64,000 nucleotides of DNA from Candidatus Moraniibacteriota bacterium (GCA_028711705.1 JAQTRS010000001.1:30581-94580); one strand, 5' to 3'; positions 5,746 through 28,943 are shown, numbered from the stretch's first letter. Notes: generated by a model from the letters alone, not told the origin. A program made the numbers and translations.

Positions 5746-5761
5746 ATTTTACAAGAAAGTT

Positions 5762-6406: not shown

Positions 6407-6411
6407 AACAT

Positions 6412-7146
6412 ATGTCAGATACTGATAAATTGTTGGCTAAGATTAAGTCACGCGGCCATTGGAAGGTGGTTATACGACCAACCGAGTATTCGGAGAATCT
6501 TATTCCATCCTTAGAAGATTGCAAAAGATTAATAGAGGAGAGTAGTGTTAGTCTAAGAGGGTGGGATTACCCTTATATTGATAGACATGGTAATGTGGGA
6601 AATGCAAGTGCAAATAGTGTTCATTCAATGTGTGATTGGGATGACATGTCATTTTTTGAATACTGGAGATTCTATAAAACGGGACAATTTGTTCATTATT
6701 TTTCAATGAGGGAAGATTGGGAAATTGATGAAAATAAAAAAGTAGAAATTCAAAGAAACCTTCGTACGAAATCCGATAAGTTTCTTGGTATTCTATCGAC
6801 ACTTTATTCAATAACGGAAATTTTTGAGTTCGGTTCGAGATTGTTTACAAAGTTAGAGCTTGTCAAGGGTGTTGAAATTATAATTGAATTACATGGAGTT
6901 AATGGAAGAACCTTATTTTTCTGGGATTCTTTCATGCGTATTCTCTATAAGGATTACACGTGCGTATATACTGATGACCTGGCTAAAATTTCACTGACAA
7001 TACCGCGAGAGGATTTAATAAGAAATTCGACAGACCTTGCGCTCCGAGAGTCAATTAAACTTTTCAGAGAAGCTTTCAATTGGAGTGGGGCTAACGAAGG
7101 TATTTTCAGGGAAGATCAGAAAAAGCTATTGGAACGTCGTTTGTAA
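6412..7146 (+). CDS. Hypothetical protein (244 aa), nested in the RM locus. It is possibly the functional partner of the preceding AlbA_2 protein.
   Basis: ORF starts 6 nt after the AlbA_2 gene stop. Trp/Phe-rich. No recognisable motif. Confidence 0.45.
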   Translation: MSDTDKLLAKIKSRGHWKVVIRPTEYSENLIPSLEDCKRLIEESSVSLRGWDYPYIDRHGNVGNASANSVHSMCDWDDMSFFEYWRFYKTGQFVHYFSMREDWEIDENKKVEIQRNLRTKSDKFLGILSTLYSITEIFEFGSRLFTKLELVKGVEIIIELHGVNGRTLFFWDSFMRILYKDYTCVYTDDLAKISLTIPREDLIRNSTDLALRESIKLFREAFNWSGANEGIFREDQKKLLERRL

Positions 7147-7169
7147 TTGAAAGTAAAATATTTCTCAGT

Positions 7170-8408
7170 ATGAAAAATTGGAAAGAAACAACTTTAGGAG
7201 AGGTGACTGATCTTATTATTGACCATAGGGGACTGACTCCAAAAAAGATTGGAGGAGATTGGTCTGATATTGGGTATCGGGCGATTTCTGCAAAGTCTAT
7301 TAAAAATGGTCAGCTTGTAAATGAGGAACAAATGAATATTCTTCCGGAAAACCTCTATAAAAAGTGGATGAAGGAGGAAATTCAATACGGCGATATTTTT
7401 CTGACTTCTGAGGCACCTCTGGGTGAACATATCGTTTGGAAGTCTGAGGAGAAGTTGGTATTGAGTCAAAGAATTTTTGGCATAAGAACCAAGAAAGAAA
7501 AACTTGATCCGTTTTTCTTTAATTATTTTATCGATAGCAAATTTTACCAACACGAACTAAAGAGCAAGGAATCCGGGTCTACTGTTACGGGCATAAAACA
7601 ATCGGAATTATTAAAGACTAGGGTTATTCTTCCACCTCTCGAAGAGCAGAAAGAAATTGCGGGGGTTTTGGGGAGTTTGGATGATAAGATCGAGCTTTTG
7701 CGAGAGGAGAACAAAACCTTGGAAGCAACCGCACAGACCATTTTCAAAGAATGGTTCGTCAATTTCAATTTCCCAAATATTGAAGGAAAACCCTACAAAT
7801 CATCCGGCGGAAAAATGATCAACTCCGAACTCGGCTTGATCCCAGATGGGTGGAGAGTTGGGAGACTATCAGAGATTGCGAATTTCCTGAATGGCTTGGC
7901 ATTACAGAAGTTTCCGCCAGAGAGTACCACTGAGTATTTACCTGTTATTAAAATTAAAGAACTGAATTCTGGAATTTCTAACCAAACCGATAAAGCAAGC
8001 GCGAAACTGGATAAGAAATATATTGTTGAGGATGGAGATATCTTATTTTCATGGTCAGGGAGCCTCATCGTAGATATTTGGAAATACGGAAGAGGGGCAT
8101 TGAATCAGCATTTGTTTAAGGTAGCATCTGACCAGTACCCAAAGTGGTTTTATTTATATTGGACGAAAGAGCATTTGGCGAACTTTCAGCAAATAGCAAC
8201 TGCAAAGGCCGTTACAATGGGGCATATTCAGAGACATCATTTGGATGATGCGCTTGTCACGATACCAATTGAAGAGTTTATGAAGATATCAGATGATGTA
8301 TTTGCACCGATGCTTGAAAAAATTATCAATAATAATTCTGAGATCCAGACTCTCTCAACTCTTCGCGATACTCTTTTACCAAAGTTGATGAGTGTTAATA
8401 ATAAGTAA
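7170..8408 (+). CDS. hsdS: Type I restriction-modification system specificity subunit HsdS (two target-recognition domains)
   Basis: Conserved central and C-terminal HsdS helices (LPPLEEQKEIAGVLGSLDDKIELLREENKTLEATAQTIFKEWF and LSTLRDTLLPKLMSV). ~410 aa. Confidence 0.88.
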   Translation: MKNWKETTLGEVTDLIIDHRGLTPKKIGGDWSDIGYRAISAKSIKNGQLVNEEQMNILPENLYKKWMKEEIQYGDIFLTSEAPLGEHIVWKSEEKLVLSQRIFGIRTKKEKLDPFFFNYFIDSKFYQHELKSKESGSTVTGIKQSELLKTRVILPPLEEQKEIAGVLGSLDDKIELLREENKTLEATAQTIFKEWFVNFNFPNIEGKPYKSSGGKMINSELGLIPDGWRVGRLSEIANFLNGLALQKFPPESTTEYLPVIKIKELNSGISNQTDKASAKLDKKYIVEDGDILFSWSGSLIVDIWKYGRGALNQHLFKVASDQYPKWFYLYWTKEHLANFQQIATAKAVTMGHIQRHHLDDALVTIPIEEFMKISDDVFAPMLEKIINNNSEIQTLSTLRDTLLPKLMSVNNK

Positions 8409-8415
8409 TTTATGT

Positions 8416-9393
8416 ATGGTGACAAGGCAACGAAAACTGGGATCAGTAAAAAATGAATTGATTCGAAAATCTATTGAGTCAATGCTTTCTGCTGTTCAAA
8501 TATTTAATAATCCCAGTATCCAATTTAAATCTGAATCTTTTATAGTTCTCTCTGTGATTGCATGGACATACCTCTTACATGCTCACTACAGAGAACAAAA
8601 AATCGAATACCGGTATTTTGAACAGAAAGGGAAGAGAAGAAAGTTTGATACAACGAAGAATGGAGCATATAAATATTGGGAACTTGAAAGATGTTTAAAT
8701 GATATTAAATCACCTATAGACAAAGTTACATCAAATAATTTAAAGTTTTTGATTGGGTTAAGACATGAGATAGAACATCAAATGACAACTAAAATTGATG
8801 ATTTATTGAGTGCTAGATTTCAAGCATGTTGTTTGAATTATAATAGTTACCTAAAGAAATTATTTCCAAAACAGGATGGGATTGAAAAGTATTTGTCTTT
8901 TAGTCTTCAGTTCTCATCTTTGAATGAAAAACAGATTGACCAATTGGTTGATTATGAAGATTTACCCCAAAACATTTCAATTTATATACAACAATTTGAT
9001 CAAGAACTACCGGATGAAGAATTTAATGATAGCAGATTTTCTTATAGGGTTTTATTTGTACCGAAAACAGCAAACAGAAAAGGTCAGGCGGACAAGGTTA
9101 TTGAATTTATTCCAGCTGATTCAGAAGTTGCCAAGGGAATGAATAAAGAATATGTATTAGTGAAAGAGAAAGAGAAAATGAAATATTCACCTAGTGAAAT
9201 TTGGAAGAAAATACAAAAAGACGGTTTTAAAAAATTTGGCGCATACCAACACACTCAACTGTGGCGGACTGAAAACGCAAAAGACCCCTCAAAGGGATTT
9301 GGTACTTTCGTTGTAAAAACTTGGTATTGGTATGATTCCTGGCTTGATTTTGTAAAAAAACATTGTGAGGAGAATAAATCAGAATATACCTAG
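8416..9393 (+). CDS. Hypothetical protein carrying an R-x4-H (RHEIEH) motif, a possible HEPN/Abi-like domain, nested between hsdS and hsdR.
   Basis: ATG at 8416 (MVTRQRK) overlaps the hsdS stop region. The motif GLRHEIEHQ is flanked by predicted helices. Confidence 0.5.
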   Translation: MVTRQRKLGSVKNELIRKSIESMLSAVQIFNNPSIQFKSESFIVLSVIAWTYLLHAHYREQKIEYRYFEQKGKRRKFDTTKNGAYKYWELERCLNDIKSPIDKVTSNNLKFLIGLRHEIEHQMTTKIDDLLSARFQACCLNYNSYLKKLFPKQDGIEKYLSFSLQFSSLNEKQIDQLVDYEDLPQNISIYIQQFDQELPDEEFNDSRFSYRVLFVPKTANRKGQADKVIEFIPADSEVAKGMNKEYVLVKEKEKMKYSPSEIWKKIQKDGFKKFGAYQHTQLWRTENAKDPSKGFGTFVVKTWYWYDSWLDFVKKHCEENKSEYT

Positions 9394-9436
9394 TTTTATG
9401 TGAATGAATACTCGCTCTAAGGATTGATATTAACGG

Positions 9437-10426
9437 ATGATTTTTATGAATGAAAATAGAGAATTTATAGGATATCTTAAGTATTCTGGAAAGTCTGTAG
9501 AGGGTGGATTTTTGGATGCTAGAAAATCTGCAGAAGCTCTACTTGGTTTTGATGAGGTGTTGCGATATTTTATTTCAGTAGGAAATCCAGATTTTAGAAA
9601 TGTTAATTATGAAATACCGGTAAGGGTTAAGAAGGGGTCATGGGGTATTTGGATTCCAATTGGAATAGCTCTCACTCAGTATTTAAACACGATTGCAAAA
9701 AAAGCTGGATCAGATGGTTTTTTTGAGACAGGACCATCAAAGGATATAGAGAAGATGTTTCGAGGTGCAGTTATTGCTGCACAATGGGTAATGAGAATTG
9801 GGATACATGTTGGCGACTTTGCAAAGAAAGAATTCGAGAAAACCGTGAGGATAAAACAAGTAGGTGATGATATAATTATTGGTGTACCAAATGCTGAAGG
9901 TAAAATATTGGATGTGCCAAAAAAATACTTTGATATATATGTTAAATGTCCCGAGAAGCTTTTTTCAAAGAATGCAAACCTTATAGAACAAGATCGGTAT
10001 TTAGAGATGGGCGTGTTTCAAAATAGTGAGGAAGAAAAGGTCCTCGTAACTGAAAAAGAGAAGAATATTTTTTATAAAAAAGATGATTCTGATAAGGATA
10101 TTTTGTTCCCGGAATTAGAACATGGTCAATTTGTTGAATTAGATGGCGAAATTACTAGAGCAACAGAGAGTACAAATACAATTGGATTTAGGTATAAAGA
10201 TCATACCTTGGTTTGTACTCCAGATAAAGATATAGCGATAGCGATATTCAAAAATAAAATGATTTCACAACAAAAGGAACATTTATTCCCCAGAGTAAAA
10301 ATTCGAGGCATTGTATCTAGAGTAGATAAAGATGGTTTCTTTAAAGAGAGAAGGCCCCAAATCATATTTTATGATATTGAATCGTTGGAGGTGGAAGCAA
10401 ATAATCGAAAGATGACACTTTTTTAA
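9437..10426 (+). CDS. Hypothetical protein (~326 aa), nested between hsdS and hsdR.
   Basis: ORF on the operon strand, AT-rich. An alternative start is at 9446. It ends 10 nt before hsdR. Confidence 0.45.
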   Translation: MIFMNENREFIGYLKYSGKSVEGGFLDARKSAEALLGFDEVLRYFISVGNPDFRNVNYEIPVRVKKGSWGIWIPIGIALTQYLNTIAKKAGSDGFFETGPSKDIEKMFRGAVIAAQWVMRIGIHVGDFAKKEFEKTVRIKQVGDDIIIGVPNAEGKILDVPKKYFDIYVKCPEKLFSKNANLIEQDRYLEMGVFQNSEEEKVLVTEKEKNIFYKKDDSDKDILFPELEHGQFVELDGEITRATESTNTIGFRYKDHTLVCTPDKDIAIAIFKNKMISQQKEHLFPRVKIRGIVSRVDKDGFFKERRPQIIFYDIESLEVEANNRKMTLF

Positions 10427-10435
10427 AGTTAAATT

Positions 10436-13400
10436 ATGACCAAAATATTTGAATCAACCATTGAGGAATTTGTAATCGAACTCTTGCAGAATCAAGGGTT
10501 TGAGTATCTATCACCCGAGGATCAAGAGAATGAACGGCCTGATCTGGGTGAAGTGGTATTGAAAGATCGTTTGAAGCGTGCCATCGATGCTATCAATTCG
10601 GGAATTCCGGAGGAAGCCAAGGAACAGGCTTTGAAGTTAGCTCTGAATCTTCCAAGTCAGAATTTGATGGATAATAATGAGATTTTCCATCGGATGCTTA
10701 CGGAAGGAATCGAGGTGGAAGTGATGGGTGTAGATGGTGTGAAAGGTGAGAAGGTTTGGCTTATAGATTTCTTGCATCCTGAGAATAATGAATTCCTTGT
10801 TTGTAATCAGTATACGGTTATTGAAAATGGAGTGAATAAAAGGCCGGATGTTGTGGTATTGGTGAATGGCTTGCCTTTGGTGGTGATAGAACTCAAGAAT
10901 CCTGCAGATGAAAATGCAACAGTGCAAAAAGCATTTACGCAGCTGCAGAATTACAAGAATGCTATTCCGAGCTTGTTTGGATATAATGCGCTTCTGGTGG
11001 CGTCGGACGGATTGGATGCGAAGGTCGGGACGATTTCTTCGGATATGTCGCGTTTTTTGGCGTGGAAGTCTCGTGATGGAGTGAAGGAGGATAGTGTAAC
11101 TGTTCCGCAAATTGAAACATTGGTGCGGGGTATGCTTGCTCAAGAAGTCTTGCTTGATTTGGTCAGGAATTTTATTGTCTTTGAGAAAGATAAAAAAGAA
11201 GATCCGGAAACGGGAATGATTTCAATAGTTACTATTAAGAAAATTGCAGCGTATCATCAATACTATGCAGTCAATAAAGCGATCACCTCGACAATGACTG
11301 CCTCGAGTGAAGAGGGGAATAGAAAAGCTGGTGTGGTATGGCATACGCAAGGATCCGGAAAATCGCTTTCGATGGTTTTCTATACTGGGAAAGTAGTATT
11401 GTCATTGAACAATCCTACGGTGGTAGTGATTACGGATCGAAATGATTTGGATGAGCAATTGTTTGATACATTTGCGAGTTGCGGACAGTTATTGCGACAA
11501 GATCCTGTGCAGGCAAAGAGTCGTGGTGAACTCAAAGATCTTTTGAGGGTTGCTGGCGGAGGGATTGTGTTTACGACGATTCAGAAGTTTTTTCCCGAGG
11601 ATGGATCGGCGGATTTTGATATGCTCTCGGAACGAAAAAATATTATCGTGGTTGCTGATGAAGCGCATCGTAGCCAATATGGATTTGGAGCAAAGACTCG
11701 TGAAAAAGATGGTGAAGTATCTACGAAATATGGATTTGCGAAGTATTTGCGCGACGCTTTGCCTCATGCGTCGTTTATAGGGTTTACGGGGACGCCGATT
11801 GAAAAGGAGGATGCTTCGACACCGGCAGTGTTTGGAAATTATGTGGATGTGTATGATATCGCGCAAGCGGTAGAGGATGGCGCGACGGTGCGCATATACT
11901 ATGAATCACGACTTGCTAAAGTGCATCTTGATGATGAGGAGAAGGCGCGATTGGATGAGGAGGTTTCTTCTATTACAGAAGGGGAAGAAAGTACGGCTGC
12001 CGAAAGAGCGAAAGCGAAGTGGGCACAGCTTGAAGCTATTGTCGGTCATCGGGATCGGTTGAAGGTTATCGCTTCGGATATCGTAGATCATTTTGAAAAG
12101 CGACAAGCAGTGATGGAGGGAAAAGGGATGATCGTTTGTATGAGTCGAAGAATTGCTGTTGAGCTTTATGAAGAGATTGTAAAGATTCGTCCGGATTGGC
12201 ATGATAGTGATTTGAAGAAAGGTGCGATAAAAGTAGTGATGACTTCGTCTTCTTCGGATCCTGAGAATTGGCAACCACATCATACAAGTAAGCAGGCACG
12301 TAAAGCGCTTGGTGATCGACTTAAGGATACGAATGATACTTTGAAGTTGGTGATCGTGCGGGATATGTGGCTTACGGGGTTTGATGCGCCGTGTTTGCAT
12401 ACGATGTATGTCGACAAGCCAATGCGTGGACATAATCTTATGCAGGCGATTGCCCGGGTGAATCGGGTGTTTAAGGATAAGTCTGGTGGTTTGATCGTGG
12501 ATTATATCGGTATTGCCTCAGATCTGAAGTCTGCTCTCGCAACATATACTGCAAGCGGTGGAAAAGGTGCGCCAACACTTGACCAGGAAGAAGCAGTCGC
12601 CGCTTTGCTTGAGAAGTTTGAAATCGTCGAGCAGATGTTCCATGGCTTTGATTATAGGCGATTCTTTTCTGTGGATACGAGAGAGAAATTGACATTAATT
12701 CTTGAAGCTCAGGAGTATGTATTTGGTTTGGATGATGGAAAGAATCGATTTACACGTCAGGTAGGATTGCTCTCGCAAGCCTTTGCTCTGTCGGTGCCGA
12801 ATCTGAAAGCTATGGCAATAAAAGATGAGGTAGGATTTTTTCAGGCAGTGAAGGCTCGTCTGACAAAATTTGAATCAATCGGAACAGGAAAATCGGATCT
12901 TGAAATTGAGACGGCTATTCGACAAATAGTTGATCGTGCTGTGGTATCGGAAGGCGTGATTGATGTGTTTGATGCTGCAGGAATTAAGAAACCGGATATT
13001 TCTATATTGTCGGATGAATTTTTGGAAGAGGTAAAGCATATGGAGCGGAAGAATCTTGCACTGGAGCTTTTGAAAAAGTTGTTGAATGATGAGATCAAGA
13101 TGCGGACGAGAAAGAATTTCATCCAGAGTAGGAAATTGTCCGAGATGCTTGAAAATGCTATCAAGAAATACCAGAACAATCTTTTGACAACAGCGCAGGT
13201 AATTGAAGAATTGATTGGATTGGCAAAGGAAATTCGTGAAGGTGATAAACGAGGAGAAGAACTTGATTTGAGTGAGGACGAGTTAGCGTTCTATGATGCT
13301 TTGGCAAATAATGACAGCGCCCGTGGTATTTTGGGAGACAAACAATTAGCAGTAATTGCAGTTGAGGTTTTCCGAAGCGTGAAAGGTAATGCAACAATAG

Positions 13401-13552
13401 ACTGGAACCTCAAAGAAACAGTACGTGCTCGATTACGTCGGGATGTGAAACGTATTCTTAATCGATATGGGTATCCACCAGATGAACAGTTAGTTGCGAC
13501 AGAGAATGTCTTGAAACAGGCTGAGTTGATGGCGAGTGAATTAGGGGAGTAA
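10436..13552 (+). CDS. hsdR: Type I restriction enzyme endonuclease/translocase subunit HsdR
   Basis: 1038 aa. The N-terminus [24 protein letters not shown] is typical of HsdR. A nuclease motif ([15 protein letters not shown]) is followed by SF2 helicase motifs (GSGKS..., DEAHRSQ). Confidence 0.92.
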
Positions 13553-13859
13553 TTTTTTAAAATATAGGAAGATTAAAATAATGCGTACTTGATAAGGATG
13601 AATGATTTGAATGAAAATGCGTAGAAGCTATATATTCACGCCACAATACCCGTATAACCCTATCAAAACGATTGCAGAAATAAACCCCCTGAAACCCGTT
13701 GACTTTCCCTTGCAGGCATGCTTCAATAGACGTGTTGTTTGCGTCGCGGTTTTTGCGGATCCAGGTCTTGCAGAGACGGGCAACAACCCATCGGCGCCCC
13801 ATAGGTGATGGGGTTCAAAGAATGATTCAGGTGGCTTTTGAATGGCGAGGAGTAGGAAG

Positions 13860-14174
13860 ATGAATAGGCTCGAAGTGGGTAGGGTGATTTCCTTTGATTC
13901 GGCAAAAGGAAAAAGATTCGGGTATCTCCAGCTGGAGAATGGGGAGAAAATGTGGTTTCATGAGGGTGATCACACCGCTCTTGTGACGGTAGATAAAGGG
14001 AGGCATCGTTTTGTGAAGCGGGTCGTCTGCCCGAAACCGATACGGCAGGGGGATGAAATCTGGTTTGTTCGAGGTTTCGGAAGCTCGGGCAAGGAAAGGG
14101 CGAGGTGTTGGTGTTACAGGAAGCGATCCAGACATACGGATTGCCGAACAAGACAAAAACCTACCGTCCATTGA
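13860..14174 (+). CDS. Hypothetical small protein with a cold-shock-domain-like N-terminus and a basic Cys-containing tail.
   Basis: GRVISFDSAKGKRFGYLQLENGEKMWFHEGD resembles the CSD pattern G.V.wF...KGfGFI...G.dvFvH. The alternative start at 13842 adds a basic leader. Confidence 0.3.
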   Translation: MNRLEVGRVISFDSAKGKRFGYLQLENGEKMWFHEGDHTALVTVDKGRHRFVKRVVCPKPIRQGDEIWFVRGFGSSGKERARCWCYRKRSRHTDCRTRQKPTVH

Positions 14175-14313
14175 AGAATATACGGCATGATTGGGAATAA
14201 CATTTTCCCATAGCCAAACAAGGTTTGCCAAGCATGCGTGCGTGGCAGACCTTTTGATTTTTATGAGGCAATCGATAATCCGTATGGCGAAGTTAGTTTT
14301 GAGCTGATATACT

Positions 14314-15024
14314 GTGAGTATGAGGCTTACGTTAAAAGAACAACGTGTCGCTGATGAAGCGAGGCAGTGGGTTAGATCTCATCAGTTGAATATTATCGAT
14401 CATTTCGTCGGAAGTGTCGAGCCGGTGGAATTTCCCGTATCGATTTTTATGGCAGGGTCTCCTGGCGCTGGAAAAACGGAATTTTCGAAACGATTGATCA
14501 AAAGGTTGGGCGGGAATATCGTACGTATCGATGCGGATGATATCCGAGATATGCTGCCGCAGTATCAGGGAAAGAATTCCTATGTTGTCCATGGTGCCGC
14601 AGCTCTTGGCGTTGAGAAAGTGTACGATTTCGTATTGAAAAAGCGATTACACGCCCTGCTCGATGGAACATTTCAAAAATATGAAAAAGCTACCGATAAT
14701 ATACGCCGTTCTCTGAAGTATGAGAGGAGTATCGATATCTTCTACGTGTATCAGGATCCTTTGGTCGCATGGGATTTTACGCAGAAGCGTGAGGTGGTTG
14801 AAGGCAGGAATATTTTGAAAGGAGTGTTCGTTGATGCATTTTTCGCTTCTTATGAGAATGTGAAAAGGGTAAAATTGGAATATGACGAGGCAGTGCGTCT
14901 CAATGTGGTGTTCAAGGATATTTCGAATCACGATGAAGAGATATGGTATAATGTAGATATCGATCAGATTGACTCGTATGTAAAAATAGGGTACACTCGC
15001 ACAGAACTAGAAAAACGCTTATGA
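14314..15024 (+). CDS. Zeta-toxin family P-loop kinase (PezT/zeta-like)
   Basis: Walker A FMAGSPGAGKT is followed by RIDADDIRDMLPQY, the typical zeta_toxin layout. ~235 aa. Confidence 0.65.
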   Translation: MSMRLTLKEQRVADEARQWVRSHQLNIIDHFVGSVEPVEFPVSIFMAGSPGAGKTEFSKRLIKRLGGNIVRIDADDIRDMLPQYQGKNSYVVHGAAALGVEKVYDFVLKKRLHALLDGTFQKYEKATDNIRRSLKYERSIDIFYVYQDPLVAWDFTQKREVVEGRNILKGVFVDAFFASYENVKRVKLEYDEAVRLNVVFKDISNHDEEIWYNVDIDQIDSYVKIGYTRTELEKRL

Positions 15025-15209
15025 GAAGCATTTTGAATATTTTCAAGAAGAAAGAACAGAAAGTCGATCGGGTATCGGAGTTTTTTCGACATACTTCGAA
15101 AGAGGAAAAGGTGCGGGTGCTGCGCGAGGTAGCCAAAGAGGCGAGCGATGATCAACGCAGGCTTTTGCGGGAGTATGATAAAAGGCTTGGAACGATGCGC
15201 GCCCGATAA
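15021..15209 (+). CDS. Small helical hypothetical protein (62 aa) whose start overlaps the zeta-like gene stop in ATGA. It is a candidate antitoxin-like partner.
   Basis: ATG at 15021 overlaps TGA 15022-15024. The protein is charged and helical (RVLREVAKEASDDQRRLLREYDKRL). Confidence 0.35.
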   Translation: MRSILNIFKKKEQKVDRVSEFFRHTSKEEKVRVLREVAKEASDDQRRLLREYDKRLGTMRAR

Positions 15210-15292
15210 GGTTTGTTTCGAGCGAAAAGATGCTTGGGATAGCGATTATGGCATAATGAAACGCCATATGACTGTGTTTTATGTGCTTTTCA

Positions 15293-15321
15293 TTGACAAT
15301 CGGCGCAAAAAAGGATAAGAT
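15293..15321 (+). promoter_or_regulatory. Sigma-70-like promoter for rplU (TTGACA-N17-TAAGAT)
   Basis: TTGACA at 15293-15298. A 17-nt spacer. TAAGAT at 15316-15321, about 35 nt upstream of the rplU start. Confidence 0.4.
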
Positions 15322-15356
15322 AAGTCTATTACTAAATTTTTGAGGAAAAAACCGTT

Positions 15357-15668
15357 ATGTTGGCTATTATTAAGACTGGTGGAAAGCAATACAAGGTTGC
15401 TGAAGGGGATATCTTGAAGGTTGAGAAATTGGAAGGCGAAGTCGGGGAGACGCTGACTTTTTCCGAAGTGCTTTTCACGGGCGATGACAAGGCTGTGGCT
15501 GTCGGGATGCCTCTTTTGGACGGCGTGACCGTTGAATCCAAGATTCTCAAGCAGGATCGCTCGAAGAAGGTGTGGGGCATCAAGCACAAGCCGAAGAAGC
15601 GCGAAAAGACCAAGTTCGGTCATCGCCAGCCGTATACCGAAGTCGAAATCACCAAGATCAACGCGTAA
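15357..15668 (+). CDS. rplU: 50S ribosomal protein L21
   Basis: MLAIIKTGGKQYKVAEGDILKVEKL is a canonical L21 N-terminus. 103 aa. Confidence 0.92.
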   Translation: MLAIIKTGGKQYKVAEGDILKVEKLEGEVGETLTFSEVLFTGDDKAVAVGMPLLDGVTVESKILKQDRSKKVWGIKHKPKKREKTKFGHRQPYTEVEITKINA

Positions 15669-15689
15669 TCGTTGGGATGGGACTTGAAA

Positions 15690-15717
15690 AAAACAGGGCA
15701 AGTGCCCTGTTTTTTTG
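15690..15717 (+). terminator. Rho-independent terminator after rplU
   Basis: Hairpin CAGGGCA-agt-GCCCTG followed by TTTTTTT. Confidence 0.6.
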
Positions 15718-15726
15718 CGGCCGCAA

Positions 15727-15755
15727 TTGACCGGAAGCGGTTTGTGTGCGATGCT
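15727..15755 (+). promoter_or_regulatory. Promoter of paralog-array unit 1 (TTGACC-N17-GATGCT)
   Basis: The same architecture recurs before each array unit: 16527-16555, 17313-17341 and 18115-18143. Confidence 0.4.
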
Positions 15756-15805
15756 TGGCAGCGTAGGGGCGCACCGTTTCGGTTGCGCGAAGGAAAGTTC
15801 TTTGT

Positions 15806-16465
15806 ATGGGGGTAGGTGTGATGAAAGGAAAAGTGGTGGCATTGGTGCCGGTGAAAGAGGGGAAGCTGTGGGCGGAGATGTTTGAGAATCCGGAGCAGCT
15901 GACGGTGGAAGATATTTTGGGGGTGACTTTCGATCAGAATAGGGATCTGGGCCACCTGCTGAGTTATCTGGATTTCAAGCCGGAGTTCTCCGGAATCCTA
16001 AGAGAGGTGGTTGAGGAATTCCTTGAAACGATGGTGAGGGACCTGTTGCCGGAAGCGATACTCTCGAGCGCATCGTTTGCACGATTGATGTCGGGAGATA
16101 TACGGAGGCTGTATGATCATGATGGCGGGGAGATTGTCCGTGACAGTCTGTATAGGTTTTTCAAAAGACTTGATGATGCCGGTACCGATATCGGCAAGCA
16201 GCCGGCATGCATGGACGACTGCCCATTTCTGGAGTTTGCGATAGTCGCGCATATAGAGTTCGGTCTGGAGGCGTATTCCGAAGCGTTCGGCGCAGGCTGT
16301 CTGGCTCTCAATGAGAATGATGTCGCGTCTTTTCCGCCTGATTCGGGTGAGAATGACCAAAAGCAGCTCGCCTCTCTTATATGCATAATGATGAGCGCTA
16401 CCGAGATCTTGCTCAAGAAGGCGGTCGATATGAAAAAGAAAGCTTCCGAAGCCTTCCCAGTGTAG
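15806..16465 (+). CDS. Paralog-array protein 1 (acidic hypothetical, ~215 aa)
   Basis: Shares the KVVALVPV...WAEMFENPE.LTV.D.L and PEFSGILREV.EEFLE....LPEAI blocks with the next two ORFs. An alternative start is at 15821. Confidence 0.6.
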   Translation: MGVGVMKGKVVALVPVKEGKLWAEMFENPEQLTVEDILGVTFDQNRDLGHLLSYLDFKPEFSGILREVVEEFLETMVRDLLPEAILSSASFARLMSGDIRRLYDHDGGEIVRDSLYRFFKRLDDAGTDIGKQPACMDDCPFLEFAIVAHIEFGLEAYSEAFGAGCLALNENDVASFPPDSGENDQKQLASLICIMMSATEILLKKAVDMKKKASEAFPV

Positions 16466-16484
16466 TTGAAATGGCTGAAATAGC

Positions 16485-16520
16485 GGCTGGCAATCGAAAC
16501 GATTGCCAGCCCATTTTTTT
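16485..16520 (+). terminator. Rho-independent terminator of array unit 1 (GCTGGCAATCG-aaa-CGATTGCCAGC + T-run)
   Basis: Perfect hairpin and an 8-T run. Homologous hairpins lie at 17271-17300 and 18075-18104. Confidence 0.6.
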
Positions 16521-16624
16521 TGCCCGATTGACAGGGAGCGGTTTTTGTGCGATGCTGATCAGGCGCGTGGCGCGCGAGCCTTTCTGGCCGCGCATAAGTT
16601 GGTTCTTTTTATGAGGTAGGTGTG

Positions 16625-17257
16625 ATGGTGAAAGTAGTTGCGTTGATACCGGTAGACGATGGTAAACGTTGGGCGGAGATGTTTCAAAATCCGAAGGACT
16701 TGACGGTGGATGATGTTTTGGACGTAACCGTGAAAAAAGGCTTGGATATAGATAGGCTGATATGGTATCTGAGTTTTAGGCCGGAACATTCCGGAATCTT
16801 GAAAGAGGTGACGGAAGAGTTTCTTGAAAGGGTGGCCAAGGAATATTTGCCGGAAGCGATAGTCTTGAGCGATCTGTTTGCGCAGGTGCTGTCCGGAGAG
16901 GCGGCGAAGGCGTATACGGACATCGATGCGGCCAATGCCTGGGATCGCCTCTATGAATCCCTTGAGGATATCGAAAAGCCGGATTTTGAGCAGTTGGTTT
17001 CGCCTCAGGCCTACGCTTTGCGGGAAAATGCGATCATTTCCTATACGAGTTTCGGTCTGGAGAAATATGAATGGGCGCTCGATGTGGCCAGATATATTTT
17101 CAGTGAAAAGAGCATACCTTTTTTCGCGGAGGAAGTTGAAGCGAGGAATCCGGAGGCGAGCCTTTCTGCGGTAGAGGCGACAAGAATCGTTGCCGAGATA
17201 CTCCTGCAAAAATCGATCGCAAGAACGGTAGGAGGGGGTGAAACCTTTTCCGCTTAG
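16625..17257 (+). CDS. Paralog-array protein 2 (~210 aa)
   Basis: MVKVVALIPVDDGKRWAEMFQNPKDLTVDDVLDV...PEHSGILKEVTEEFLERVAKEYLPEAI is homologous to unit 1. Confidence 0.6.
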   Translation: MVKVVALIPVDDGKRWAEMFQNPKDLTVDDVLDVTVKKGLDIDRLIWYLSFRPEHSGILKEVTEEFLERVAKEYLPEAIVLSDLFAQVLSGEAAKAYTDIDAANAWDRLYESLEDIEKPDFEQLVSPQAYALRENAIISYTSFGLEKYEWALDVARYIFSEKSIPFFAEEVEARNPEASLSAVEATRIVAEILLQKSIARTVGGGETFSA

Positions 17258-17270
17258 TTGAAATGAAGGA

Positions 17271-17300
17271 CTGGCAGCTGATAATCGCTGCCAGTTTTTT
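17271..17300 (+). terminator. Rho-independent terminator of array unit 2 (CTGGCAGC-tgataatc-GCTGCCAG + TTTTTT)
   Basis: Hairpin read from the sequence. Confidence 0.55.
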
Positions 17301-17390
17301 ACATCCCTCGCCTTGACTTTTCATTGCTATTGCGTAATGCTGTATGGCGTAGGGGCGCACTTTCTGAGTCGCGCAGGAACAGTTCTTTGT

Positions 17391-18053
17391 ATGGGGGTAA
17401 GTGTGATGAAGCTATATGTGCTGGAAAGAAAAGAGCCGACGCCGGAAGATCGCAGGCAGTTTATGTTAGAATTGTTTCGGAATCCGGAGGAGCTGACGAT
17501 ACGGAGACTTTCTGATGCTTCCTTCCGATGGAATATCACTTTTGATCAGATATTTCTGTGGTTGGATGCCACCCCGGAGTTTTCCGGGATTCTGCGGGAG
17601 GCGACCACGGAGTTTTTGGAAACGGAAATCAAGGGGATGATACCGGAATCGATACTTTCGAGCGATCTGTTTTCGAGTGTGGTGTCGGGGGTTGCGAAGG
17701 AATTATATGAGGATGATGAGGAAGAGGCTGTTCGTGACAGTCTTGTCGAATCCTTTATGATATTCGATGTTTTCGGTGCCGATGGCCGGTCGTTATTGCT
17801 TGATGAATGTCCGCAGATAGGGACCGCGATTATCGCGTATGTAGAACTTTATCTGGGGAATTATATCGAAGCGATCGGCGCGGCCGGCTTTGCTCTCGGC
17901 GAGAGAGACGATCCTGATTTTTCGGATAATTTTGACAATGGCAAACAGGAGTCGATCGATCGCCTGAGGCGAATCATGGCGGGCTTCATTGAAATATTTT
18001 TGCAGAAAGCTATGGCGAGGCACAAGGGGGTTACGGGAGTTTTTTTCGCGTAA
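17391..18053 (+). CDS. Paralog-array protein 3 (~220 aa)
   Basis: Homologous to units 1 and 2 (PEFSGILREATTEFLETEIKGMIPESI). The upstream 5' UTR is nearly identical to that of unit 1. The longer ORF from 17313 is probably an overextension. Confidence 0.6.
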   Translation: MGVSVMKLYVLERKEPTPEDRRQFMLELFRNPEELTIRRLSDASFRWNITFDQIFLWLDATPEFSGILREATTEFLETEIKGMIPESILSSDLFSSVVSGVAKELYEDDEEEAVRDSLVESFMIFDVFGADGRSLLLDECPQIGTAIIAYVELYLGNYIEAIGAAGFALGERDDPDFSDNFDNGKQESIDRLRRIMAGFIEIFLQKAMARHKGVTGVFFA

Positions 18054-18074
18054 CCGAAGAAGTTGAAATGGTGG

Positions 18075-18104
18075 CTGGCAATCATAATGGTTGCCAGTTT
18101 TTTG
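18075..18104 (+). terminator. Rho-independent terminator of array unit 3 (CTGGCAATC-ataatgg-TTGCCAG + TTTTTT)
   Basis: Hairpin read from the sequence. Confidence 0.55.
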
Positions 18105-18198
18105 CATCCCTCGCCTTGACTTTTCGGTATTTTTGTGCAATGCTTACGACATGGGGGCGCGCTTTTGAAGCTGCGTCGGGTTGGTTCCTTGATAAGGA

Positions 18199-18924
18199 GT
18201 GTGTGTGATGTCGGATAAAACGATGAATGCGATGAAGCGAAAGGCTGCTCCATTGAAGTTAAGGGCGGTTGCGGCGAGGCTGAGGAATGTGAAGCATGCG
18301 AAGAGGCTGGCTGCGGCGATGGAAAGATTGATGGCATCCAATGATAAGATGGACAAATTGGATGGGCTGATATGGAGTTTGGATGGAATGTATCCCGGGT
18401 TTGTAAAGCGGCTGGTGAAGTCGCTTCTGGAAAACCATATACGGGGGTTGCTTCCTGAAAAGATAGCCACGCACACCGACTTCGAGAGGATATTCTCGGG
18501 CGAGCGGTATTGCTTCGGGACCGAACCGGGCCAGATGCTGAAATACGACCTGCTGCAATGCCGGCAGCGTCGGATTATCCCGTTCGATGGGTTCATGCTG
18601 AGGTGTTATAACTGGGCCTATGAGCGGCCGACGCATGGCTATGTCAAAAAGGCGATGGCCGCGTATCTTCACTTTTGGTATCATGCGCATGTTCAGGCGC
18701 TTGCTGCCGCCAGGAATGCCCTGATGGACAGACGCGTTGCCGCATTCGATTATACGATGGATTGCCTTCGTGCTCGGGCCGCTTCCCCGGAGGATATTGC
18801 GGAGTTGGCGGCGGCCGCCGACGAGGCGAATGCGCTCGTTGCGGCGCTCGTACATGAGATGAAAAAGAAAATGGTGCAGGAAAAGCTGGTGAAAATAGCA
18901 CAAAATCATGCGGAACTCGCATGA
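18199..18924 (+). CDS. Paralog-array protein 4, a divergent member with an extended basic N-terminus.
   Basis: LDGLIWSLDGMYPGFVKRLVKSLLENHIRGLLPEKI aligns to the PEFSGIL...LPEAI block of units 1-3. It carries the same promoter, UTR and SD cassette upstream. Confidence 0.5.
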   Translation: MCVMSDKTMNAMKRKAAPLKLRAVAARLRNVKHAKRLAAAMERLMASNDKMDKLDGLIWSLDGMYPGFVKRLVKSLLENHIRGLLPEKIATHTDFERIFSGERYCFGTEPGQMLKYDLLQCRQRRIIPFDGFMLRCYNWAYERPTHGYVKKAMAAYLHFWYHAHVQALAAARNALMDRRVAAFDYTMDCLRARAASPEDIAELAAAADEANALVAALVHEMKKKMVQEKLVKIAQNHAELA

Positions 18925-18933
18925 AAAGCGGCG

Positions 18934-18969
18934 GACTGATCAATCGTATCGATTGACAGTCCGTTTTTC
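18934..18969 (+). terminator. Terminator closing the paralog array (imperfect GGACTGATCAATCG/CGATTGACAGTCC hairpin + GTTTTT)
   Basis: Read from the sequence. Confidence 0.5.
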
Positions 18970-19047
18970 TTTATCCGACCGCGCTTTGTCATTTGGGGGG
19001 CGGCACGGTATAATGGGGGTAATGAACCATATATAAACTACATCTCT

Positions 19048-20223
19048 ATGCGCGTGGGCATCAACGCATCGTTTTTGCGGAAGCCGTCGACCGGCATCGG
19101 CCAGGTGACGCGGCATTTCCTCGAAGAGCTCTCAAAAAATCCCGATGTCGTGTCCAAGCCGGAAGGGGAGGATGTCGAATTCATCGTGTATCTTGAGGAG
19201 GCTCTGCCTGCAGGGCTGCGATTATCCTCGAGGTTTTCGGTGCGGGCGTTCCTGCCGTTTCTGTGGAAGCGCGATGATCTGATCCGCAAGATGCTGTGGG
19301 AAAAGGTGTCGCTGCCGAGACGTGCCAAGGCGGACGGCTGCGATGTGCTACTCAGCCTGTATCAGTCCGCGACCGTGGCGCCCAAGGGGACGCGGCATGT
19401 CATGCTGGTGCACGATATCATCCCGCGGATCTTTCCGGAGTACCTGAACAATTCCCGCAAGCGGACGTATCAGCGCCTGATCGAGGCCGCCATCAAGAAA
19501 GCAGACAAAATCGCGGTAGTTTCGGCCTATACCCGCAACGACCTGGTGGCGCAGCTTGGCATCATGTCGCGCGACGTGTCCGTTTGCTATGTCGATGTCG
19601 ATCCGCTGTTTCGCAAGTCCGTTTCGATCGGCAGGGCGCATGACGTGATGCGGAAGTATCACCTGCATCCGGGATATATCTATCTGGGCGGCGGATTGGA
19701 GAAGCGCAAGAATGCGGAAGGATTGCTGTATGCCTATGCCGCGCTCCTCAAGACAAACAAGAAGCAGGAGTTCATCCACGATATGCCCAAGCTCGTGATT
19801 TCCGGGAAACTGATGCCAGAACTTGCGCCGCTTATCGTGGATGTGGAGGCGCTGGTCAAGCAGTTGAATCTGACGGGGCAAGTGAAGATTTTGGGATTCG
19901 TGCCGCAAGAGGAGCTGCCGGCGCTGTATAAGCAAGCCCTGTTTTTCGTGTTCCCGTCTTTGTATGAGGGGTTCGGCCTGCCGGTGCTCGAGGCGATGAG
20001 TCAGGGCACGCCGGTGCTTACCTCTCACACCACATCGCTTCCCGAGGTGGGCGCGGATACGGTGATGTACTGCGATCCGAGCGATGTGTCGGATATGGCG
20101 CGGGCCCTTCGGAAGCTGTTGCTCGACAAGGAGTATCGCGCCGCGCTGGGAGCCCGCGGCAAGGTTCGGTCTCAAGAGTTTTCTTGGGGGAAGTTCGCCA
20201 AAAGGATAGCGAGGATGGTCTAA
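19048..20223 (+). CDS. Glycosyltransferase family 4
   Basis: Contains FVFPSLYEGFGLPVLEAMSQGTPVLTS (the GT4 EX7E region). ~390 aa. Confidence 0.85.
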   Translation: MRVGINASFLRKPSTGIGQVTRHFLEELSKNPDVVSKPEGEDVEFIVYLEEALPAGLRLSSRFSVRAFLPFLWKRDDLIRKMLWEKVSLPRRAKADGCDVLLSLYQSATVAPKGTRHVMLVHDIIPRIFPEYLNNSRKRTYQRLIEAAIKKADKIAVVSAYTRNDLVAQLGIMSRDVSVCYVDVDPLFRKSVSIGRAHDVMRKYHLHPGYIYLGGGLEKRKNAEGLLYAYAALLKTNKKQEFIHDMPKLVISGKLMPELAPLIVDVEALVKQLNLTGQVKILGFVPQEELPALYKQALFFVFPSLYEGFGLPVLEAMSQGTPVLTSHTTSLPEVGADTVMYCDPSDVSDMARALRKLLLDKEYRAALGARGKVRSQEFSWGKFAKRIARMV

Positions 20224-26429: not shown

Positions 26430-26561
26430 AATAGCTTATCAGAGCCATTGTTCCGGTGTTTTTCGTGCGGGGTGTGAAAAGGAAGTAGCGGATACTTGAC
26501 AAAAACATAGAATATGTACTAATGTATATTGATAGTATCATTCAGTAAGCAATATGTTTCT

Positions 26562-27581
26562 ATGGAATCTTTTTACATTCAGTTCGAAAAACTCACCGGA
26601 AATCTGATGGAGCGCTCTCAGGACATATTGCGCGAGCGTTTCGGCGTGGTGGACGGCAAGGCGAAGACGCTCGAAGAGATCGGTAAGAAGTACCGTATCA
26701 CCAGGGAGCGGGTGCGTCAGATTATCCGCAGCTCGCTGAAGGACATCCAGGCCCGTAGTAAGAACCGTTTCCAGGAGGTGGCGCAGGTTTTCGAATCGAC
26801 GGTACGTGCGAGAAGCGGCATCATAAGCGAAGCCGACCTTGTGGCGGCCCTGGGCAAGGGGGATGCCAAGGAAGTGGCGGCACTCTCTTTCTTTTTGGAG
26901 TGCCTTTCTGTCGTGCGACTCATCAAGGAGGATAGGCGCATGAAGCGATCCTATGCCCTGAAGGGTTTTTCCGTGGAGGAATGGTCCGCATCGATGAAGA
27001 AGGTCGTGAGCGTGCTTGAGGAGGAGAATGGCGCTATCGAGAAGAAGGATCTGTTCAAGAAGTTTTCCCAGAAATATCCGAGCGATGGGAAGGAGCAGGA
27101 GTTTTTTGACTACATCGCCGTATCCAAGGAAGTGAAGCGCAATGCTTTCGGGAAATTCGGCCTCGTGTTCTGGAGCGATATCTCGCCCAAGGGTACCCGC
27201 GAAAAGGCGTATCTGGTGATGAAGGCCACGAACAAACCGCTTCATTTCCGTGAAATCACCACGCTGATCGACGAATACGGCCTCAATAAGAATAGCAAGA
27301 AGAAGACGCATCCGCAGACCGTGCACAACGAGCTTATCAAGGATAACCGTTTTATCCTCGTGGGACGCGGTATCTATGCGCTCTCCGAGTGGGGGTATGC
27401 CCAAGGGACGGTGCGCGAGGTGGTGGGTGAAGTGCTGCGCAAGCATGCCTCGCCTATGCAGCGGACCGATATCATCAAGGAGGTCTTGGCGCTCCGCCAG
27501 GTCAAGAAATCGACCATTGTCATCAATCTCAATACGTTCTTTGCCAAAGTCGGCAAGGACGCTTATACTTTAAAGAAGTAG
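26562..27581 (+). CDS. DNA-binding protein with an N-terminal sigma-70 region-4-like HTH and a C-terminal HARE-HTH-like domain
   Basis: [28 protein letters not shown] matches the sigma70_r4 pattern. The C-terminal [16 protein letters not shown] matches the HARE-HTH hallmark. No sigma region 2 is present. Confidence 0.5.
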
Positions 27582-27638
27582 TGCCCCTAAAAAAAGCGCT
27601 GCTTCTGAAATACAAAACTGTAAATTAAAAGCCACGCC

Positions 27639-28928: not shown

Positions 28929-28943
28929 CCATAACGCAACAGT

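Follow-up and report, generated by a model that had tools for sequence, protein, structure and literature searches.

Lineage-specific tandem expansion, from one gene to four, of an apparently CPR-restricted family at a conserved chromosomal slot

Results and discussion

A stretch of 64,000 nucleotides of DNA from Candidatus Moraniibacteriota bacterium (the window, below) contains a lineage-specific tandem expansion, from one copy to four, of a chromosomal gene whose family appears to be restricted to the CPR (Patescibacteria). The array comprises four tandem monocistronic units on the same strand (positions 15727-18969). Three of these are acidic, lineage-duplicated type A copies (g1-g3), while the fourth (g4) is of type B and has the opposite charge. 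The units are autonomous cassettes, and the duplications are old rather than recent. CPR genomes are about 1 Mb in size, and a large share of their genes lacks an assigned function; the dealings of these bacteria with hosts, competitors and phages are largely unknown. Four intact, separately expressed and diverged orphan copies in such a streamlined genome mark this gene as important for something environmentally variable.

Four tandem genes and their autonomous cassettes

The four consecutive same-strand ORFs encode proteins of 210-238 aa that align over their full length with 19-38% amino acid identity. A whole-unit duplication giving four tandem genes, each with its own promoter, UTR, SD and terminator, had been proposed in a sequence-only reading of this DNA; the ORFs, their alignment and the family HMM bear out the array, and the presence of a promoter, leader, SD and terminator at every copy bears out the duplication of whole units. 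The locus thus combines adjacent homologues (at least two), individual expression signals and variable copy number, as befits a tandem multigene family built of autonomous cassettes. It is exceedingly improbable that the array consists of pseudogenes in decay or arose as an artefact of assembly. The family is indeed very rare and the start of g3 differs between public annotations, but an independent Logan assembly equals window positions 15603-19086 at 100% identity, none of the four ORFs is disrupted even though their divergence is saturating, a family HMM from which g1-g4 had been left out recovers all four (E = 1e-18 to 4.5e-34), the fold prediction is confident, and the regulatory blocks are kept across species.

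We are highly confident of the anatomy of the units, in which the terminator of the previous gene is followed by a promoter, a 5' stem-loop, a pyrimidine tract with a strong SD and an ATG, and the protein gene. The features given here with coordinates lie on the plus strand. The conserved left border of the variable slot is formed by rplU, encoding ribosomal protein L21 (15357..15668; Pfam Ribosomal_L21p, E = 1.3e-35), whose intrinsic terminator (CAGGGC-AAGT-GCCCTG plus T7; 15694..15716), read from the sequence and the alignment, precedes unit 1. Just 5' of this terminator lies a box, GTTGGGATGG (15671-15680), that resembles the box GTTGAAATGG found after g1-g3, their homology being tentative.

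The motif TTGAC-N17-(G/A)ATGCT, which had been proposed as the promoter of every unit, does precede each of g1-g4; this degenerate pattern occurs four times where 0.32 matches would be expected, and every occurrence lies in the array. The individual sites are TTGACC-N17-GATGCT with a TG at the extended -10 for unit 1 (15727..15755; pattern and conservation in relatives), TTGACA-N17-GATGCT for unit 2 (16528..16556; 26 of 29 positions shared with unit 1), and TTGACT-N17-AATGCT for both unit 3 (17313..17341) and unit 4 (18116..18144), these last found by pattern search. The extended -10 TG is usually present in these sigma-70-type promoters. The sequence TTTTTT(A/G)CATCCCTCGCCTTGACTTTTC at the unit 3 promoter differs at one position from its counterpart upstream of unit 4, and the unit 1 promoter sequence is also found 5' of the single-copy orthologues in the related loci L004, L007 and L008. 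A consensus promoter scanner called none of the array promoters, since RATGCT fits only three of the six positions of TATAAT; the RATGCT elements are assigned as putative promoters from their position and their conservation across copies and species.

As the earlier reading had noted, a GC-rich leader hairpin is present in all four units, as is an SD block, GTTC(T/C)TT...GGRG...GTGTGATG. The stem-loop of unit 1 (15769..15786; RNAalifold) has seven pairs and lies near the predicted mRNA 5' end, and its equivalents in units 2, 3 and 4 (16574..16591, 17355..17372 and 18157..18174) emerge from the leader covariation analysis. Compensatory changes occur in four of the seven stem pairs across seven leaders (RNAalifold), and a second, weak helix, UCUU:GGGG, is predicted. 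For both helices together 94.8% of the cells are paired, versus 37-56% when the partner is slid, and none of 500 shuffles reaches the observed value. The aligned translation-initiation block of unit 1, GTTCTTTGTATGGGGGTAGGTGTGATG (15797..15823), comprises the pyrimidine tract, SD and ATG, and agrees with that of unit 3 at 26 of 27 positions.

Downstream of g1-g3 the box GTTGAAATG is followed by a CTGGCA...TGCCAG hairpin and a T-run. The terminator scan detects GGCTGGCAATCG-AAA-CGATTGCCAGCC plus T-run after g1 (16485..16521; 12 pairs) and GGCTGGCAATCA-TAA-TGGTTGCCAG plus T-run after g3 (18073..18105), while ACTGGCAGC...GCTGCCAGT plus T6 after g2 (17270..17301) was identified from sequence and scan. 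The scanner called the g2 palindrome on the minus strand; the T-run is on the plus strand. The downstream module that had been ascribed to all units is thus shared by g1-g3 but not by g4, whose terminator, GGACTGATCAATCG-TAT-CGATTGACAGTCC plus T-run (18933..18968; read from the sequence), is of a distinct GGACTG...CAGTCC type resembling that found 3' of the type B orthologue in L007. The description of the non-coding modules as near-identical proved too strong, the whole intergenic regions between units being 51-69% identical, with conservation confined to short blocks. Within these blocks the regulatory DNA is preserved as had been proposed: identity reaches 52-90% in the promoter block and 67-96% in the SD block, versus 33-50% at third codon positions.

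Two protein types and their divergence

The type A copies, defined by ORF, alignment and family core HMM, are g1 (15821..16465; 214 aa, pI 4.56, 106.8 bits), g2 (16625..17257; 210 aa, pI 4.47, 95.6 bits) and g3 (17406..18053; 215 aa, pI 4.40, 82.7 bits), and the type B copy, on the same grounds, is g4 (18208..18924; 238 aa, pI 9.65, 56.7 bits), so that the HMM score declines along the array from g1 to g4. The start of g3 was fixed by the conserved SD and ATG; public annotations give it as 196 aa or 238 aa. All four products had been described as acidic, which holds for g1-g3 (pI 4.4-4.6, net charge -16 to -19) but not for the basic g4 (net charge +13), although the family in general is acidic (pI 4.4-6). 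The additional basic N-terminus noted in g4 is real, being a Lys/Arg-rich extension of about 45 aa. The proposed contrast between a conserved N-terminal and a divergent C-terminal half is clear for g1-g2 (57% versus 22%) and less marked in the other pairs. Likewise, the copies are homologous, as expected of one multigene family, but they are not all of one kind: g1-g3 group with the L004 orthologue in a lineage-specific clade, whereas g4 belongs to a second, deeper type with orthologues of its own and clusters with P0006 and P0007, the slot genes of L007 and L008.

Rapid diversifying selection, also suggested earlier, is not demonstrable: synonymous sites are saturated among the copies (pS 0.60-0.75) and positive selection therefore cannot be shown, the apparent dN/dS being mostly 0.35-0.85 and exceeding 1 in a single half-gene comparison (1.12). 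By the same token an arms race is not demonstrated. That the four ORFs are nevertheless intact at such saturation indicates that each copy has been kept by selection, and selection on the copies is further implied by the retention of one copy at the same slot in relatives and by conservation of the regulatory DNA in excess of that at synonymous sites.

A variable gene at a fixed chromosomal position

The gene order of the slot is rplU, X, GT4, Wzy, where X is a single-copy gene of either type A or type B in four related genomes. Copy number indeed varies in the relatives, with one copy in L004/L005, L007, L008/L009/L019 and L010 versus four here, and the two types occur there singly and as alternatives at the same rplU-GT4 slot. 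DNA homology with L004 runs through the unit 1 promoter, stops at 15758 and resumes at 18974, near the right border of the slot, which is marked by the promoter of the downstream GT4 gene (18986..19014; TTGTCA-17-TATAAT, 11 of 12 positions in the promoter scan). The right-hand neighbours constitute a cell-envelope polysaccharide cluster, GT4-Wzy-GT4-LytR-GT2. The rapid protein divergence claimed for the gene is confirmed against these surroundings, the slot protein being 24-43% identical among relatives versus 56-94% for the flanking proteins (L21 87-94% in L004, L008 and L010; GT4 67-71%; Wzy 56-65%).

This setting raises the somewhat unlikely alternative that the products are accessory or regulatory factors tied to rplU or to the envelope cluster, with old duplicates persisting under relaxed constraint or sub-functionalisation and no arms race. 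Consistent with this, the rplU-GT4 position is strictly conserved in five genomes, and distant members have cell-wall genes beside or close to them, a PBP-like gene adjoining the L011 member and the mraZ-PBP-murE cluster lying within 5 kb in L012 and L017. Apparent dN/dS is below 1 except in one half-gene comparison, and the fall in HMM score from g1 to g4 would fit relaxed constraint after duplication. However, as each unit has its own promoter and terminator, the slot gene is not co-transcribed with its neighbours, and the more distant members of the family lie away from rplU and from glycosyltransferase genes. Moreover, the slot protein has diverged two to three times as far as any neighbour, an unusual pattern in a housekeeping partner, and a genome of about 1 Mb rarely retains four intact redundant copies at saturated synonymous sites.

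A rare family of all-helical proteins

The family yields 51 matches in 1.84 billion representatives, four of them g1-g4 themselves and two spurious, leaving about 45 clusters of unnamed, all-helical proteins of about 190 aa; their apparent restriction to the CPR follows from an NCBI name and record titles. In agreement with the earlier statement that no known family could be assigned, no Pfam domain, housekeeping or otherwise, is found in 41 members, NCBIfam, PHROG and PADLOC give no significant match, and phage, plasmid and IMG/VR collections yielded no relatives. The predicted protein is soluble, with about 210 aa and about 11 helices, and the AlphaFold model of g1 is all-helical (pLDDT 90.3, pTM 0.88). 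Its closest fold matches are SsdAI and DUF416, the structural resemblance being weak, and sequence and profile tests against the PDB, Pfam DUF416, Imm5 and a YjaG profile were all negative. The HEPN RNases, whose four-helix fold carries a conserved catalytic Rx4-6H motif, were rejected as a family for these proteins. As the family has no invariant polar residues, its members are probably binding proteins rather than enzymes.

The proteins could in principle be effectors, delivered into or displayed to the host by the episymbiotic CPR cell, evolving fast and multiplied to follow host targets. The apparent CPR restriction, fast divergence, variable copy number and strong-looking expression signals would fit such a role, as would a VirD4-like coupling protein 10 kb downstream. 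Yet the sequences, read by eye, have no obvious signal-peptide-like or membrane-spanning segment, the predicted model suggests compact helical bundles of cytoplasmic type, and the other loci have no linkage to secretion genes, which makes host effectors distinctly improbable.

Immunity-like inhibitors as a tentative explanation

Given the lack of invariant polar residues and the fold matches to SsdAI and DUF416, our tentative best explanation is that g1-g4 may be non-enzymatic, immunity-like inhibitor proteins engaged in an arms race. The leader hairpin would probably stabilise the mRNA, allowing the four genes to be expressed strongly and independently. Their products would most likely inhibit, in a stoichiometric manner, a partner that itself evolves fast, for example an incoming toxin, an effector, or a phage or host protein. 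Copies that duplicate and then diverge would neutralise a broader set of such partners. Immunity proteins are fast-evolving and are often multiplied in arrays. The rarity of the family, its lack of known domains, its variable copy number at a fixed slot, the divergence of the slot protein beyond that of its neighbours and its general acidity all favour this explanation. Against it, no toxin or other recurrent partner gene adjoins the family gene at about 11 distinct loci checked for toxin domains and recurrent neighbours (the window, L002, L004, L006, L008, L010, L011, L012, L015, L017 and L021), the slot is a conserved chromosomal one rather than a mobile or polymorphic-toxin island, and g4 is basic, unlike an acidic mimic.

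Another conceivable role is that of a defence or anti-defence component of the adjacent island, in which a zeta toxin and a type I R-M system lie directly upstream; the proteins could, for example, be acidic DNA mimics acting on the type I restriction enzyme to modulate it, or antidotes of the zeta toxin. In L004, too, the type I R-M system lies upstream; L010 has a zeta toxin beside rplU, and L008 has one within the cluster. In addition, g1-g3 are strongly negatively charged, and the best fold match, SsdAI, mimics DNA. We nevertheless consider this role highly doubtful: PADLOC and PHROG give no match, the 20 kb of L004, which do contain the family gene, have no zeta toxin, R-M and zeta neighbours are absent at distant family members, and no homologues turned up in phages and plasmids. 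Furthermore, the R-M region has a GC content of 33-46% versus 48-54%, and is thus probably a separate insertion. An epsilon-type antitoxin, expected to be a small gene co-transcribed with that of its zeta toxin and invariably linked to it, was rejected: in the window, L008 and L010 the zeta toxin is nearby, but rplU or other genes stand between it and the family gene, and it is missing at the distant loci as well as from the 20 kb of L004. An anti-restriction DNA mimic of the Ocr/ArdA type was likewise rejected, there being no Pfam or PHROG match and no phage, plasmid or IMG/VR relatives, and only the acidic g1-g3 would fit.

An extension of the inhibitor proposal, which we regard as unlikely, is that the family represents a CPR-specific new class of rapidly evolving inhibitors and the slot a specificity cassette, in which types A and B, as alternative ancient alleles, are swapped or stacked via recombination at the conserved promoters and terminators. 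Such a fixed, highly expressed slot would mediate conflict of the episymbiont with its host, competitors or phages.

The family is now defined by an alignment of HMM quality, a confident predicted fold, a syntenic slot, two allelic types and a leader hairpin. Should the weak structural resemblance to SsdAI and DUF416 prove real, it would also hint at what the DUF416 fold, long an orphan, does; should the proteins be ordinary lineage-specific accessory factors, the finding is a well-documented case of tandem duplication only.

Comparison with known systems

SsdAI (PDB 7jtu_B), which confers immunity to SsdA, an ssDNA deaminase toxin of type VI secretion, is comparable in size (193 aa), all alpha-helical and, like the family in general, acidic. 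Its acidic side chains mimic DNA phosphates and enter the DNA-binding cleft of the toxin, thereby blocking the deaminase (PMC7901873, PMC12494967). However, no sequence or profile similarity to the family was detected. An SsdAI-like immunity protein would be expected beside its cognate toxin, a BaDTF2 deaminase or other polymorphic toxin, in a T6SS or polymorphic-toxin locus, whereas the family gene occupies a conserved Patescibacteria chromosomal slot, with no adjoining cognate toxin at the loci checked.

The DUF416/YjaG profile (PF04222; PDB 2q9r, 3f7c) is not matched, as hmmscan finds no PF04222 in g1-g4 and the 41 members at E <= 0.1; hhalign against YjaG or a 13-sequence YjaG alignment gives probabilities of 0.4-0.5%, a weak test in view of the little diversity of that alignment. 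The YjaG relatives retrieved are single-copy, almost all named from gammaproteobacteria and at least 84% identical to the E. coli protein, and hence, unlike the array family, not fast-evolving. Among Imm5-type proteins (PF14423), the Imm-5-like phage protein A0A6J5RNF9, of comparable length (209 aa), is the best BFVD match, with a non-significant Foldseek E of 0.31 (probability 0.89, TM 0.41); membership was rejected, the Pfam profile being unmatched in all 41 members.

In its general behaviour the locus recalls tandem paralogue arrays of small or host-associated genomes, such as those of orphan immunity genes and the paralogous lipoprotein families of Borrelia, which also show tandem duplication, strong divergence, differences in copy number and retained expression signals. 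Unlike those arrays, the present one lies in a streamlined CPR chromosome and is built of complete cassettes that run from promoter to terminator. Its proteins have a cytoplasmic look, in contrast to surface lipoproteins, and two ancient types are combined in it.

Organization of the tandem array

An ORF listing combined with direct reading of 15300-19500 places four plus-strand genes in tandem: g1 (15821-16465, 214 aa), g2 (16625-17257, 210 aa), g3 (17406-18053, 215 aa) and g4 (18208-18924, 238 aa), whose products are 19-38% identical in end-to-end alignment. Together with alignments of the flanking DNA, this bears out the sequence-only reading of four consecutive paralogous genes, each equipped with its own promoter, leader, SD and terminator. 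The array is thus a set of four autonomous expression cassettes, in which two ancient types of the gene are combined. The start of g3 is annotated in three different ways, namely as a 196-aa protein by NCBI (P0003), a 238-aa protein by Logan (L001, 1735-2451) and a 246-aa maximal ORF opening with TTG at 17313; the conserved SD/ATG block places it at 17406.

Alignment of the upstream regions revealed the element TTGAC-N17-(G/A)ATGCT before each gene, and a degenerate version of this promoter pattern occurs at 4 sites in the 64 kb, all of them at the array (0.32 expected). Each upstream region also contains a G+C-rich hairpin and an initiation block of the form GTTC(T/C)TT...GGRG...GTGTGATG. On the 3' side, g1-g3 are followed by a GTTGAAATG box and then a CTGGCA...TGCCAG hairpin with a T-run, whereas the g4 terminator is of another type (GGACTG...CAGTCC). 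The earlier description of the noncoding modules as near-identical was too strong: whole intergenic regions are only 51-69% identical, with conservation residing in short blocks. The stretch 15603-19086 is reproduced exactly in an independent Logan assembly (run SRR22315508), which excludes an artefact of a single assembly pipeline as the source of the array; an artefactual origin of any kind is extremely improbable.

The four leaders of the array were aligned with three leaders of orthologous loci, seven sequences in all. The alignment predicts a stem-loop of 7 pairs a few nucleotides past the predicted transcription start, with compensatory double changes in four of the seven pairs. A second, weak helix is tentative; in it a pyrimidine tract could pair with the SD. 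Across both predicted helices 94.8% of cells are paired, as against 37-56% when the 3' partner is slid, and the pairing and covariation score, for a structure derived from this same small alignment, was matched by none of 500 shuffles. Promoter and hairpin also recur, in conserved form, ahead of the single-copy orthologues in three related loci (L004, L007 and L008). By analogy with known 5'-terminal hairpins, we infer that the stem-loop may stabilise the mRNA. Rfam gave no meaningful match, either for the whole window at the gathering threshold or for 13.5-19.1 kb at E <= 1, and a search of the window found no tRNA genes.

Age of the copies and selection on the cassettes

By the Nei-Gojobori method, pS lies between 0.60 and 0.75 for all pairs of g1-g4. 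As synonymous sites are saturated, the duplications must be old, and positive selection is neither demonstrable nor excludable. The dN/dS comparison proposed for the diversifying-family idea was run, and yielded apparent values mostly of 0.35-0.85, with a single half-gene comparison at 1.12; at this level of saturation such values say nothing for or against diversifying selection. None of the four reading frames is disrupted, and a family HMM from which these proteins were left out recovers them with E-values of 1e-18 to 4.5e-34, so each copy has been kept by selection. The HMM score declines along the array, from 107 bits for g1 through 96 for g2 and 83 for g3 to 57 for g4.

Conservation of the regulatory blocks clearly exceeds that of synonymous sites (promoter 52-90% and SD 67-96% identity among units, versus only 33-50% at third codon positions), which points to purifying selection on these blocks. 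Comparison of the four junctions (15669-15820, 16466-16624, 17258-17405 and 18054-18207) showed a mosaic of similarity. The promoters of units 1 and 2 agree at 26 of 29 positions and the SD blocks of units 1 and 3 at 26 of 27, while units 3 and 4, whose coding sequences are only 19% identical, have in common, with one mismatch, the segment TTTTTT(A/G)CATCCCTCGCCTTGACTTTTC, which comprises the terminator tail and the -35 box. Such a pattern suggests that the units have exchanged sequence, by patchy gene conversion or by unequal crossing-over.

A fixed chromosomal slot with variable content

Look-ups of the closest homologues recovered the gene order rplU, family gene, GT4, Wzy in four other genomes. 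In response to the suggestion that copy number be checked in relatives, we found a single slot gene in each of these, against four here. The occupant is of the g1-g3-like type A in GCA_964624415.1 (P0005; loci L004 and L005), of the g4-like type B in L007 (P0006) and in L008/L009/L019 (P0007/P0052), and of a third clade in L010 (P0008). In L010 an unrelated 123-aa ORF (2370-2741) with its own promoter-like and terminator-like signals lies between the family gene and GT4, which shows that the slot is open to other cargo as well. The window and L004 are homologous at the DNA level across rplU and the first promoter, up to 15758, and again from 18974, so that the variable block is precisely bounded. 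Flanking proteins are 56-94% identical to those of the window and the slot protein only 24-43%; the slot gene evolves far faster than its neighbours. In a neighbour-joining tree g1-g3 group with P0005, and g4 with P0006 and P0007, indicating that g1-g3 were duplicated in this lineage and that g4 represents a second, older type, one which holds the slot alone in other genomes. The locus is accordingly a lineage-specific one-to-four expansion of an orphan gene at a fixed position. A metagenome DNA-pattern scan with the rplU 3' end added a single contig, which derives from the organism of L008.

The gene for ribosomal protein L27, rpmA, usually lies directly after rplU. Here rplU (L21) spans 15357-15668 without rpmA behind it, and neither the 64 kb nor the syntenic loci gave a match in tblastn with E. 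coli L27; the usual rpmA position is occupied by the orphan family. Downstream of the array lies a cell-envelope cluster encoding GT4, a Wzy-type ligase, a second GT4, LytR-CpsA-Psr, GT2 and an S41 peptidase. A lineage-specific accessory factor tied to the ribosome or the envelope, with its copies under relaxed constraint, would suit such a position; we consider this unlikely, though only slightly less probable than the inhibitor role discussed below.

The window is chromosomal, and upstream of rplU it carries a type I restriction-modification locus, among whose genes others are inserted (1658-13552), followed by a zeta toxin gene (14314-15024). The restriction-modification backbone (HsdM, 1658-3202; HsdS, 7170-8408; HsdR, 10436-13552) is broken up by genes for an AAA_14/DUF4143 ATPase (3323-4747), a Schlafen AlbA_2 protein (5762-6406), a DUF3644 protein (8392-9393) and several ORFans; L004 has the same backbone with a Fic gene in place of these inserts. 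With a GC content of 33-46%, versus 50-57% downstream, the locus looks like a composite defence island. That g1-g4 are components of this adjacent island, e.g. as a DNA mimic or antidote, is quite improbable; the array has a GC content of 48-54%, close to the downstream genome.

The zeta toxin gene and, after it, an overlapping 62-aa ORF (14314-15209) lie just upstream of rplU, and a similar pair is found by rplU in L010 (89-980). The L008 zeta toxin, which has a 102-aa ORF upstream of it (4583-5596), has been inserted instead between Wzy and the second GT4, and in L004 there is no zeta toxin within 20 kb. Zeta modules seem to move around this region. A role of g1-g4 as linked zeta antitoxins was rejected, as the linkage is not conserved.

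Several other features of the region were observed. Plus-strand GC skew is unusually strong and positive (0.19-0.38) over 9000-18800, covering restriction-modification genes and the array, and about 0.1 from GT4 onward. The only plausible ORF in the ~760-bp gap between hsdR and the zeta toxin (13553-14313) encodes 110 aa (13842-14174) and has no Pfam match; a short stretch within the gap (13780-13835) has a conserved counterpart in L004 (8858-8914). Further downstream, past the envelope cluster, 26529-30926 encodes a sigma-70 region 4/HARE-HTH protein, a 429-aa protein that lacks a Pfam match and owes its DUF8128-type label solely to its syntenic counterpart in L004, and a VirD4/TraG-like coupling ATPase with a zinc finger; this arrangement is kept in L004.

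The protein family and its possible functions

Searches of Pfam, NCBIfam, PHROGs and PADLOC with g1-g4 gave nothing significant (sub-threshold hits were only to phd, YqeK and a PHROG of unknown function). Pfam likewise assigned no domain to the 41 aligned family members beyond scattered single-member noise, and sequence searches of the PDB with 4- and 41-sequence profiles gave no match. A word-index search of 5.8 billion proteins matched nothing beyond g1-g4 themselves, one of which NCBI lists under a Candidatus Moranbacteria MAG (323-kb contig) with the name hypothetical protein; with the 41-sequence profile only P0039 and P0041 were added. It took an exhaustive HMM search of 1.84 billion representatives to uncover the family, with 47 further matches. 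Two long, multi-stretch ones, P0023 and P0037 (a plant TIR-NB-LRR protein), were discarded as leucine-rich-repeat artefacts; the remainder are ~160-265 aa, most being 180-200 aa. Motifs common to the family are LT.(D/E)DIL, (F/Y)PGIL, LLPE and the C-terminal block RAMIAHIEFGLGN...AGFA.NEK..PNFG. Members are labelled "hypothetical" in every source that names them, and the family is previously undescribed.

Profile scans of genome contigs found no match with g1-g3, and with the core family two GTDB species representatives (MAGs) labelled Candidatus Saccharibacteria. More distant members lie in unrelated contexts with no recurrent neighbour. Long-form members of ~263 aa with an N-terminal extension occur in 'Saccharibacteria' MAGs (L012, 7606-8792; L013; L014; L017), always with a small MarR/HTH-like gene directly 5' and an mraZ-PBP-murE cluster ~4 kb away. 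Searches of phages, plasmids and IMG/VR turned up no relatives, and the expanded gene appears to be restricted to CPR bacteria. A host-directed effector is an unlikely role for these proteins.

The family alignment contains no invariant polar residue, and the HEPN-like R and H of the RAMIAH motif are frequently substituted, also in the copies of the window. An enzymatic role is therefore improbable, and we infer that the proteins act as non-enzymatic binders. A HEPN identity (Rx4H in RAMIAH) was rejected, these residues being unconserved and without fold support. The description of the products as acidic applies to g1-g3 (pI 4.4-4.6) and fails for g4 (pI 9.65, net charge +13, of which ~+9 lies in its N-terminal extension). 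This charge reversal in an otherwise acidic family is not seen in the type B orthologues of g4 (pI 4.7 and 6.0). A PLKLR motif in the Lys/Arg-rich extension is shared with P0031, which belongs to the long-form members of 250-265 aa and has the motif in its own N-terminal extension.

A confident AlphaFold2 model from the 41-sequence alignment has ~11 helices (pLDDT 90.3, pTM 0.88), its two least confident internal segments being residues ~121-130 and ~171-180; a model from four sequences was similar but weaker. Variable loops lie at residues ~122-134 and ~168-178. The best match in a viral structure library, an Imm-5-like phage protein, was not significant. A further lead at the level of the fold, which does not establish membership, is a weak resemblance of the model to SsdAI/DUF416. 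SsdAI is all-helical and blocks its toxin by using acidic side chains to imitate DNA (PMC7901873, PMC12494967). At the sequence level, all tests of this link were negative; the YjaG (DUF416) profile used was too shallow for a fair profile-profile test, since the relatives listed by a word-index search for E. coli YjaG were all at least 84% identical. Of the roles considered, that of immunity-like inhibitors of a variable partner is the most likely, though with low confidence, and expansion of the array would then broaden their specificity. Against this, no partner toxin was found in any locus examined, the gene occupies a chromosomal slot and not a mobile element, and g4 is basic.

That fast-evolving genes expand in tandem is already known, and no new mechanism is demanded here. 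As a variant of this phenomenon, the array is unusual and well defined in its fixed-slot, two-type and cassette-wise organization within a streamlined CPR genome.
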